Assembly: GCF_002854065.1 (NCBI RefSeq)
Contig: NZ_CP024147.1
DNA: 64,000 nt
Reading direction: 5' to 3' (one strand)
DNA from: Escherichia coli
GTDB lineage: Bacteria; Pseudomonadota; Gammaproteobacteria; Enterobacterales; Enterobacteriaceae
Position numbers and translations under genes: made by a program. Below, piece after piece: positions 2,990-42,520 of the stretch. The notes under the pieces were generated by a model. The model made no database searches. It worked only from the letters and a program-made list of their open reading frames with translations, and was not told where the DNA came from. Position 1 is the first letter of the stretch, and every line of letters starts with the position of its first letter.

Positions 2990-3111
2990 GCAGGTGAATG
3001 CAACGTCAAGCGATGGGCGTTGCGCTCCATATTGTCTTACTTCCTTTTTTGAATTACTGCATAGCACAATTGATTCGTACGACGCCGACTTTGATGAGTC
3101 GGCTTTTTTTT
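2990..3111 (+). ncRNA. fnrS: FnrS small regulatory RNA (FNR-activated, Hfq-dependent)
   Basis: Sequence GCAGGTGAATGCAACGTCAAGCGATGGGCG...CTTACTTCCTTTTTTGAATTACTGCATAGC... ending in hairpin GCCGACTttgatgAGTCGGC plus T8; lies in the zntB-dbpA intergenic region, where fnrS maps in K-12. Confidence 0.8.
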
Positions 3112-7693: not shown

Positions 7694-7920
7694 TGAATAA
7701 ATCCTTTAGTTATTTTATTTGCCTTTTATCCCCATTTCGGGGAGTGAAAACATCCTAAAGGAGAAGTTCAGTTAGCCGATAAATATCATTTGTTACGCCT
7801 TAAGTAAAACCTTAATCAAATAATTCCTCTGAAATGATAATAAGTCTGGTGAATGTATCGAAGATAATACATACAAAATAAAAATTATACTTTTTATTTT
7901 CTATACGTTATTCTGCGCGG

Positions 7921-8029
7921 GTTATATGCCTTTATTGTCACAGATTTTATTTTCTGTTGGGCCATTGCATTGCCACTGATTTTCCAACATATAAAAAGAC
8001 AAGCCCGAACAGTCGTCCGGGCTTTTTTT
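7921..8029 (+). ncRNA. micC: MicC small RNA (Hfq-dependent repressor of ompC)
   Basis: Sequence GTTATATGCCTTTATTGTCACAGATTTTATTTTCTGTTGGGCC... ending in GCCCGAACAGTCGTCCGGGC plus T7; sits in the ompN-pfo intergenic region, divergent from ompN. Confidence 0.85.
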
Positions 8030-8057
8030 AGAATTGGATAATCCTTATCCAGAGCAT

Positions 8058-39762: not shown

Positions 39763-40764
39763 TCAGAGTTTAGCGAATTTTTCGAGGGTGCGAATAAGCT
39801 GCGTGACGAAGCCATATTCGTTATCGTACCAGGCGACCGTTTTCACCAGTTGTAAATCGCCCACGGCGGTAATTTCCGTTTGCGTGGCATCAAACACTGA
39901 ACCGAAATGGCTGCCAATGATATCGGAAGAGACTATTTCTTCATCGGTATAACCAAATGACTCGTTATTGGTGGTTGCTTGTTTAAGTGCGTTATTCACC
40001 TCTTCGGCAGTCACTTTTTTTCCGAGAATGGACACCAGCTCAGTGACCGAACCTGTTTTCACCGGTACGCGTTGCGCATGACCTTTCAGTTTGCCGCTCA
40101 GTTCCGGTATCACCAGACCAATGGCTTTTGCCGCCCCCGTAGTGTGGGGAATGATATTTTCTGCCGCGGCGCGTGAAGCACGTAAATCTTTACCACGCGG
40201 GCCATCCACCAGTGACTGGGTGCCAGTATAGGCATGAATGGTCGTCATCGTGCCGACTTCTATCCCGAAACTGTCATGCAAGGCTTTGGCCATCGGCGCA
40301 AGACAGTTAGTAGTGCATGATGCCACGGAAACAATGGTGTCGTTGCCATCCAGAGTGTCGTCATTGACGTTATAAACGATAGTTTTCATTTCACCGGCAG
40401 GGGCGGAAATCAACACCTTCTTCGCGCCAGCATCAAGATGCGCCTGCGATTTCTCGGCGGAGGTATAAAAGCCAGTACATTCGACAATGATTTCTGTACC
40501 TTTCGCTTTCCACGGAATATTTTTAGCCTCTTTTTCGGCGTAAACCGCGATACTTTTCCCATTAACGATAAGTGAATCTTCCGTAAAATCAACGCTCCAG
40601 GGGAACGGTCCGTAGTTTGAATCATGTTTCAGCAGGTAGGCGAGAATTTTTGGAGAAGTGAGATCATTAATAGCGACAACGTCTATGTTGCTTTTGACTT
40701 CAAGTAATCGACGCAACACCAGTCGACCGATACGACCAAAACCGTTAATACCAACTTTACTCAT
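39763..40764 (-). CDS. gapC: Glyceraldehyde-3-phosphate dehydrogenase GapC, intact reading frame
   Basis: 333-aa uninterrupted ORF with NAD-binding NGFGRIGR and catalytic [10 protein letters not shown] motifs. Confidence 0.85.
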
Positions 40765-40952
40765 GGTTTTCTCCTGTCAGGAACGTTCGGATGAAAATTG
40801 ATCCTTTCCAGGCTTAGACCAGGATGGCGGGATGGGCAATCTCCATTCTTACAGTGAAACGTAACGTACTGAAAACGGGTGAACAATATTTAATGAAATT
40901 TTGAGAAAAGCCCGTTATGTTAACGGAAAATTATGTTAAAGCAGGAAATGTT

Positions 40953-41483
40953 ATGAAAAATAAATACTCAAGGTTACAAATCAGCATTCACTGGCTGGTC
41001 TTTTTGCTGGTTATCGCAGCGTATTGCGCAATGGAGTTTCGGGGTTTCTTCCCACGTAGCGATCGGCCGCTCATCAACATGATTCATGTTTCCTGTGGCA
41101 TCTCAATTCTCGTGCTGATGGTGGTTCGTCTTTTGTTAAGACTGAAATACCCAACCCCGCCGATTATACCTAAGCCGAAACCGATGATGACGGGACTGGC
41201 GCATTTGGGACATTTGGTGATTTATCTCCTGTTTTTTGCGCTGCCAGTGATTGGTTTGGTGATGATGTATAACCGGGGCAACCCGTGGTTTGCGTTTGGT
41301 TTGACGATGCCTTACGCTTCAGAGGCCAATTTCGAACGGGTAGATAGCTTAAAGTCGTGGCATGAAACGCTGGCGAATCTGGGATATTTTGTCATCGGTT
41401 TGCACGCTGCGGCTGCACTGGCACACCACTATTTCTGGAAGGACAACACACTTCTACGCATGATGCCGCGTAAACGTTCCTGA
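40953..41483 (+). CDS. cybB: Cytochrome b561
   Basis: 176 aa from MKNKYSRLQISIHWLVFLLV..., four-TM haem-binding protein. The ORF-track start at 40917 is a 12-codon extension. Confidence 0.85.
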   Translation: MKNKYSRLQISIHWLVFLLVIAAYCAMEFRGFFPRSDRPLINMIHVSCGISILVLMVVRLLLRLKYPTPPIIPKPKPMMTGLAHLGHLVIYLLFFALPVIGLVMMYNRGNPWFAFGLTMPYASEANFERVDSLKSWHETLANLGYFVIGLHAAAALAHHYFWKDNTLLRMMPRKRS

Positions 41484-41492
41484 AGGATATTT

Positions 41493-41557
41493 AAAGAAAA
41501 CGCCTGTACTAAAACCGACCCGTGGTACAGGCGAAGAATACGGGTCTACATCGGAAG
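41493..41557 (-). ncRNA. rydC: RydC small RNA (Hfq-binding)
   Basis: Minus strand reads CTTCCGATGTAGACCCGTATTCTTCGCCTGTACCACGGGTCGGTTTTAGTACAGGCGTTTTCTTT, recalled as RydC with its pseudoknot-forming repeats; lies between cybB and ydcA. Confidence 0.75.
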
Positions 41558-41727
41558 CGCCTATTATATTTATTTGTATGACAAATAAAACCATAATCCT
41601 TGCCCATACGTCCATCTGGCTTATTTTTAATCAATTCACCCGATCTTTGATCTCATCAACGGTATCAAAATAAACCAGCGTATAACGTTCAAATCGAACA
41701 TAAGATTCGATAAACCATGGAGGTTAT

Positions 41728-41901
41728 ATGAAAAAACTGGCACTTATTTTGTTTATGGGAACGCTTGTTTCCTTTTATGCCGATGCTGGGCGCAAACCCT
41801 GTTCTGGTTCGAAAGGGGGGATCTCACACTGTACGGCAGGCGGCAAATTTGTCTGTAATGATGGTTCTATTAGTGCCTCGAAAAAAACATGCACTAACTG
41901 A
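41728..41901 (+). CDS. ydcA: Small secreted protein YdcA
   Basis: 57-aa ORF MKKLALILFMGTLVSFYADAGRKPCSGSKGG... with signal peptide, preceded by GGAGG. Below the ORF-track cutoff. Confidence 0.75.
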   Translation: MKKLALILFMGTLVSFYADAGRKPCSGSKGGISHCTAGGKFVCNDGSISASKKTCTN

Positions 41902-41972
41902 AGTGTAAAAGGGGTGCCATGAGAAAATGAATCTGCTAGTCAGATGCGCGGGGAAAATCCCCGCGCTTGCCC

Positions 41973-42122
<150 letters not shown>

Positions 42123-42520
42123 AGCCTTTCTCCTTGCCGGATGGCGGGTAAGAGGCTAACATCTGAATTGCTTGGTTCATTCGTTGGCCTCGGTTGATAG
42201 AAATATCGGTCGGGGCCTTCGTCTTTCTGATTCCCGGTTAGCCTGAAAACAGAAAGTCTCAGGCACCCGTGAGCATCCTATGTGGTTTCCTTAGGGACGA
42301 AAATAATCACCTGACGAAATTGCGTGCTGTTTTCCAGAATTTTTCGTCATTCGGGTTAGCCAGTTTAACCATTCGTTACTCTCTTCATTCCAATGGCATT
42401 AATCTTCTCTGCAATAATTGTTGTAAAAATGTGACGCAAAGAGGCTTTTAGTCGTAAGTAATTACCGTCAAATGCCGATGACTATCTATCAGGAGTAAAC
42501 CTGGACGAGAGACAACGGTA

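Follow-up and report, generated by a model that had tools for sequence, protein, structure and literature searches.

Positions 41493 to 41557 on the minus strand of the 64,000-nt stretch of Escherichia coli DNA analyzed here (contig NZ_CP024147.1, hereafter the window) are almost certainly the chromosomal gene for RydC, a 64- to 65-nt Hfq-dependent trans-acting small RNA (sRNA) of enterobacteria. The minus strand reads CUUCCGAUGUAGACCCGUAUUCUUCGCCUGUACCACGGGUCGGUUUUAGUACAGGCGUUUUCUUU, with the RNA 5′ end at 41557 and the 3′ end within the U-run at 41493 to 41495. When the entire 64 kb window was scanned with Rfam 15 at gathering thresholds, the RydC family (RF00505) matched 41494 to 41557 on the minus strand over model positions 1 to 64 of 64, with a score of 92.5 bits against a gathering score of 48 (E = 5.2e-17), a match far beyond chance. 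All 65 nt are identical to rydC of K-12 MG1655 (b4597), which the curated K-12 record gives as an ncRNA at 1491442 to 1491506, in opposite orientation to cybB, the annotated interval coinciding exactly with these 65 nt. The first-pass annotation, which had recognized RydC at these same coordinates and had suggested an Rfam search as a check, is borne out by the 65/65 identity, by coordinates that are exactly those of the K-12 annotation, and by the end-to-end Rfam match. No feature of the sequence speaks against this identification. The locus is a known gene correctly recognized and in that respect an ordinary finding; RydC has been under study since 2005, and both its crystal structure in complex with Hfq and the regulatory circuit around it have been worked out.

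The gene lies between cybB (cytochrome b561/superoxide oxidase; 40953 to 41483, plus strand), which is convergent with it and is called both in the list of open reading frames (ORFs) and in the RefSeq annotation of a 100% identical record, and the divergent ydcA (57-aa predicted periplasmic protein; 41728 to 41901, plus strand). This is where it had first been placed, and the ORF list and the annotation agree. Its position next to cybB in convergent orientation is the conserved location of RydC, and the same arrangement has been described in the literature (PMC11340327). The cybB stop codon, TGA, occupies 41481 to 41483, leaving nine bases (41484 to 41492) before the last base of RydC, as in K-12 (9 nt); the distance of 10 bp given earlier is right to within one base, the exact count being 9. 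Gene order is that of K-12, aldA-gapC-cybB-rydC-ydcA-yncP-hokB-trg, with hokB at 41973 to 42122 on the minus strand. At the gapC position, an intact 333-aa glyceraldehyde-3-phosphate dehydrogenase ORF (39763 to 40764, minus strand) is named gap in the 100% identical RefSeq record, and gapC is a pseudogene at the corresponding position in K-12 MG1655. Beyond ydcA, the Rfam family sok (RF01794, 111.5 bits) matches 42117 to 42268 on the minus strand, the strand of hokB and the mok leader; because K-12 sokB is annotated on the opposite strand (approximately 42170 to 42226, plus), this match seems to correspond to the leader of the hokB mRNA and not to the antisense RNA. The small RNA MicC was matched at full length at 7918 to 8038 on the plus strand (125.4 bits, gathering score 90).

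In the 12 automatically annotated RefSeq records among the matches listed, nothing is annotated at the site of the rydC match, nor does the 100% identical record give an RNA gene in the region; among the RefSeq E. coli records examined, rydC is annotated only in the curated K-12 record. The remark in the first-pass annotation that the gene is easy to miss is well founded.

Alignment of 321 nt around rydC with K-12 MG1655 showed that, outside the 65 identical nucleotides, 255 of 256 aligned positions are the same. The K-12 locus agrees with the window in the RNA, its neighbors, its strand, the −10 box, and the spacing to cybB, and differs from it by one promoter base at −25 (window position 41582). 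Of 5426 complete E. coli genomes, 5415 carry the RydC 65-mer, each of them once and 4063 of them at an identity of at least 99%, and the 1.6 kb around rydC matches 5416 of the 5426. Conservation of this kind, nearly universal and in single copy, points to purifying selection on the sequence. The region 40800 to 42400 is missing from 10 to 11 of the 5426 genomes, has five matching places on plasmid-labeled records, and in strain 100416 is otherwise 100% identical and split by an IS1 element.

Two helices can be drawn in the RNA. Stem 1, recovered by pair counting and as an Rfam consensus helix, joins nt 12 to 18 (GACCCGU; 41540 to 41546, minus strand) to nt 35 to 41 (ACGGGUC; 41517 to 41523, minus strand) through 7 pairs, with an energy of −10.5 kcal/mol on its own. 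Stem 2 joins CGCCUGUAC (nt 25 to 33; 41525 to 41533, minus strand) to GUACAGGCG (nt 49 to 57; 41501 to 41509, minus strand), which are exact reverse complements, through 9 pairs (−13.8 kcal/mol on its own). Because the 5′ arm of stem 2 sits in the loop of stem 1, the predicted helices can form an H-type pseudoknot that would leave the invariant 5′ end free. It had been proposed earlier that the two 9-mers form the pseudoknot; they do supply stem 2 as exact complements, but stem 1 (nt 12 to 18 with 35 to 41) is needed as well. Nested folding of the single sequence found only stem 2 and was no better than shuffles (z = −0.69), because RydC is a pseudoknot, which ViennaRNA cannot predict; explicit helix energies and pair counting were used in its place. 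Stem 2 together with the U-tail looks like a terminator hairpin, and the terminator scan missed it, its loop being 15 nt against a maximum of 8 for the tool. The one minus-strand match of that scan, at 41532 to 41518, is a piece of the pseudoknot region and not a separate terminator.

The pairs were followed through an alignment of nine sequences, five of them distinct, from Escherichia and Salmonella and without Klebsiella, Citrobacter, or Enterobacter copies: the window, K-12, three E. coli variants, E. albertii, an Escherichia cryptic-clade genome, S. enterica subsp. arizonae, and one metagenome contig. The relatives came from three loci in a scan of genome contigs (E. albertii, Escherichia sp., and S. 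arizonae) and from a single RydC locus in a scan of metagenome contigs, the latter identical to the S. arizonae copy. All 16 pairs form, with 80 of 80 cells paired across the five distinct sequences. In stem 1 two pairs carry a one-sided change and are still paired (A-U to G-U and U-A to U-G), and in stem 2 three of the nine pairs are compensatory in Salmonella (U-A to C-G, A-U to G-C, and C-G to U-A). Only 2 of 500 column shuffles equaled the observed pairing plus compensation, and sliding the 3′ partners by one to three columns reduced pairing to 26 to 45%; the sample behind these figures is small, and its compensatory changes come from essentially one lineage, Salmonella. The covariation agrees with the published pseudoknot and with the Hfq–RydC crystal structure paper (PMC4337610), the physical fold of RydC having been published (PMC4337610, PMC3985669). 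Salmonella RydC (the S. arizonae locus, and the RNA of PMC4337610) shares with the window nt 1 to 18 including the seed, both stems, the UU steps, and the U-tail, as well as the −10 box and the YieP palindrome described below; it differs in three swapped pairs of stem 2 (UAC/GUA to CGU/ACG), in one additional base in each of two loops, and in having another gene upstream.

Both single-base insertions in the Salmonella RNA fall in loops; they also bear on whether the region might encode a small protein, since they would shift the reading frame. Two minus-strand ORFs from the six-frame list cover the element, 41454 to 41615 (53 aa) and 41509 to 41634 (41 aa), but the start codons of both lie upstream of the RydC 5′ end, within the promoter, the substitutions keep base pairs rather than codons, and no protein is annotated there in K-12 or in the RefSeq records examined. 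We regard a coding function as extremely improbable and RydC as the product of the locus.

Upstream of the gene, a −10 box, TATAAT, located by eye, occupies −11 to −6 relative to the RydC 5′ end (41563 to 41568, minus strand) and is conserved in E. albertii and S. arizonae. No acceptable −35 hexamer was found upstream of rydC, and a consensus scan gave no two-hexamer sigma-70 promoter; the scan is blank at rydC because it requires a −35 match. A perfect −10 box without a −35 box at rydC has also been described by Bianco et al. 2024 (PMC11340327).

A candidate operator for the regulator YieP, ATTTGTATGACAAAT, lies at −29 to −15 (41572 to 41586, written on the plus strand), in the spacer immediately before the −10 box. 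A ChIP-exo study derived a palindromic YieP motif, atTTGTaTGAcaAAT, and listed rydC and ydcA among candidate targets (PMC7642389), and the sequence in the window matches this motif at 15 of 15 positions. The perfect motif occurs once in the 64 kb, all other matches having 3 mismatches and lying at chance level, and conservation of the palindrome extends to E. albertii, Escherichia sp., and S. arizonae. The single difference from K-12 falls within it: position 41582 (−25) is C on the plus strand, compared with T in K-12, a transition at a low-information position of the motif. The base in the window is the motif consensus and is also that of E. albertii and S. arizonae. Across the 5415 E. coli genomes the exact 48-nt promoter of the window was found in 3783 and the exact K-12 version in 1236. 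Because 3783 genomes have it and E. albertii and Salmonella share it, the promoter allele of the window is the common and apparently the ancestral one.

In a genetic study that named no binding site, YieP, a GntR/FadR-type protein, was shown to repress rydC by factors of 20 in E. coli and 7.5 in Salmonella (PMC11340327), and the perfect motif fits this published repression. As a motif match and not a footprint, ATTTGTATGACAAAT is a candidate operator. YieP would repress rydC by occupying the 15-bp palindrome at −29 to −15 and blocking RNA polymerase, which a dimer bound there would be expected to exclude. The ChIP-exo data sets disagree, one listing rydC for YieP and another not. In standard growth YieP keeps rydC nearly silent, and on northern blots RydC is visible only in a yieP deletion or when it is ectopically expressed (PMC11340327). 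The first-pass annotation had held that the lack of a transcript would refute the gene, and this is unsafe: because rydC is repressed in standard growth, an empty RNA-seq profile from such cells would not count against it. FnrS represses yieP translation, lowering YieP and activating rydC indirectly, and OmrB antagonizes RydC (PMC11340327). FnrS itself was matched at full length at 2990 to 3107 on the plus strand (134.8 bits, gathering score 60), placing two members of the same circuit approximately 38 kb apart in the window.

Near-silence in wild-type laboratory cells is also what a decayed copy would look like, one whose sequence is kept in this strain and never expressed. The RNA, however, is the same as the functional K-12 allele, its promoter allele is carried by 3783 of 5415 E. 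coli genomes and is common to E. albertii and Salmonella, and the gene is conserved as a near-universal single copy, so that we give a nonfunctional copy next to no credence relative to an intact rydC. The RydC transcript and its independent expression have been published for K-12 and Salmonella.

The same promoter elements bear on a reading without an independent gene, in which the element would merely serve convergent cybB as its terminator or 3′ untranslated region. The cybB stop codon is only 9 nt away, and the plus strand forms the stem 2 hairpin as well; on that strand, however, the hairpin is followed by AAGAAUAC, which is not a U-run, and on the minus strand by UUUUCUUU. It is the minus strand that has its own perfect TATAAT and conserved YieP motif and that the Rfam RydC model matches. 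Published northern blots and rydC′-lacZ fusions show an independent transcript, rydC of Klebsiella and Enterobacter is reported away from cybB (PMC11340327), and a primary start at the minus-strand RydC 5′ end has already been published for K-12 and Salmonella. There is very little chance that the element is nothing more than a cybB terminator, and an independent rydC gene is preferred.

The RNA opens with a single-stranded 5′ seed (nt 1 to 13; 41545 to 41557, minus strand), delimited by its invariance and by its pairing with the leader of cfa. The seed sequence CUUCCGAUGU is present at nt 1 to 10, and nt 1 to 12 are unchanged in all nine aligned sequences from Escherichia and Salmonella. Since cfa lies outside the window, the first 14 nt of RydC were paired against the K-12 cfa leader. 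RydC nt 3 to 13 and leader positions −109 to −99 from the start codon were predicted to form an 11-bp duplex with one G-U pair and an energy of −17.7 kcal/mol, which was equaled by 4 of 2000 shuffled seeds and 1 of 2000 shuffled leaders, and the predicted site is the published one. The paired stretch of cfa ends in GGA, and the next bases complete GG|AUUAU, the E. coli RNase E site in cfa (Bianco et al. 2019, PMC6755755). The seed pairs with the long sigma-70 isoform of cfa mRNA and covers this RNase E site (PMC6755755), a published mechanism that the computed pairing reproduces at the level of sequence. Pairing of RydC also counteracts Rho-dependent termination on cfa (PMC11340327), and the outcome is more cyclopropane fatty acid synthase (PMC6755755, PMC11340327). 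Within the seed, nt 7 to 12 read AUG (41549 to 41551, minus strand) followed directly by UAG, a start-stop pair that is probably a coincidence.

Two targets had been attributed to RydC at the outset, cfa and yejABEF; cfa is well validated, whereas the evidence for yejABEF is older and later work describes it only as reported (PMC6755755). The confirmed direct targets are cfa, trpE, and pheA (Bianco et al. 2024, PMC11340327), the latter two being modestly repressed, and repression of csgD and yejABEF by RydC has been reported. Two other sRNAs act on the long isoform of cfa mRNA: ArrS, like RydC, is an activator and pairs at the leader region that RydC uses, and CpxQ works through the RNase E site that RydC masks (PMC6755755) but, unlike RydC, represses cfa. 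ArrS and CpxQ are unrelated genes with unrelated sequences at other loci, and the Rfam scan found neither in the 64 kb window.

At its other end RydC carries the U-rich tail UUUUCUUU (nt 58 to 65; 41493 to 41500, minus strand), the published contact with the proximal face of Hfq. The Hfq–RydC crystal structure paper places this 3′ tail in the central channel of Hfq, which binds the tail and the UU steps of the loops and stabilizes RydC (PMC4337610). The corresponding features in the window are U23U24, the U44 to U47 run, and the 3′ terminal tail. Binding to Hfq is known for the K-12 sequence from the literature and is represented in the window by these sequence features.

Because only 9 nt separate cybB from rydC and the plus strand has no U-run, cybB transcripts must run into rydC, and they probably run through it in antisense. 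Whether the resulting cybB 3′ untranslated region, perfectly complementary to RydC, might act as a cis-encoded RydC sponge, or whether convergent transcription might interfere, is a speculative extension that we consider distinctly unlikely, and, judged by title and abstract, none of the papers naming both genes in the literature collection searched seems to deal with a cybB–RydC antisense link. If it were true, expression of the superoxide oxidase CybB would be linked to the level of RydC and hence to membrane cyclopropanation.

The locus is an example of a small RNA gene that automatic RefSeq annotation leaves out. Its promoter spacer, through the YieP motif, offers a concrete candidate operator for a repression of rydC that has been shown genetically without a mapped site.
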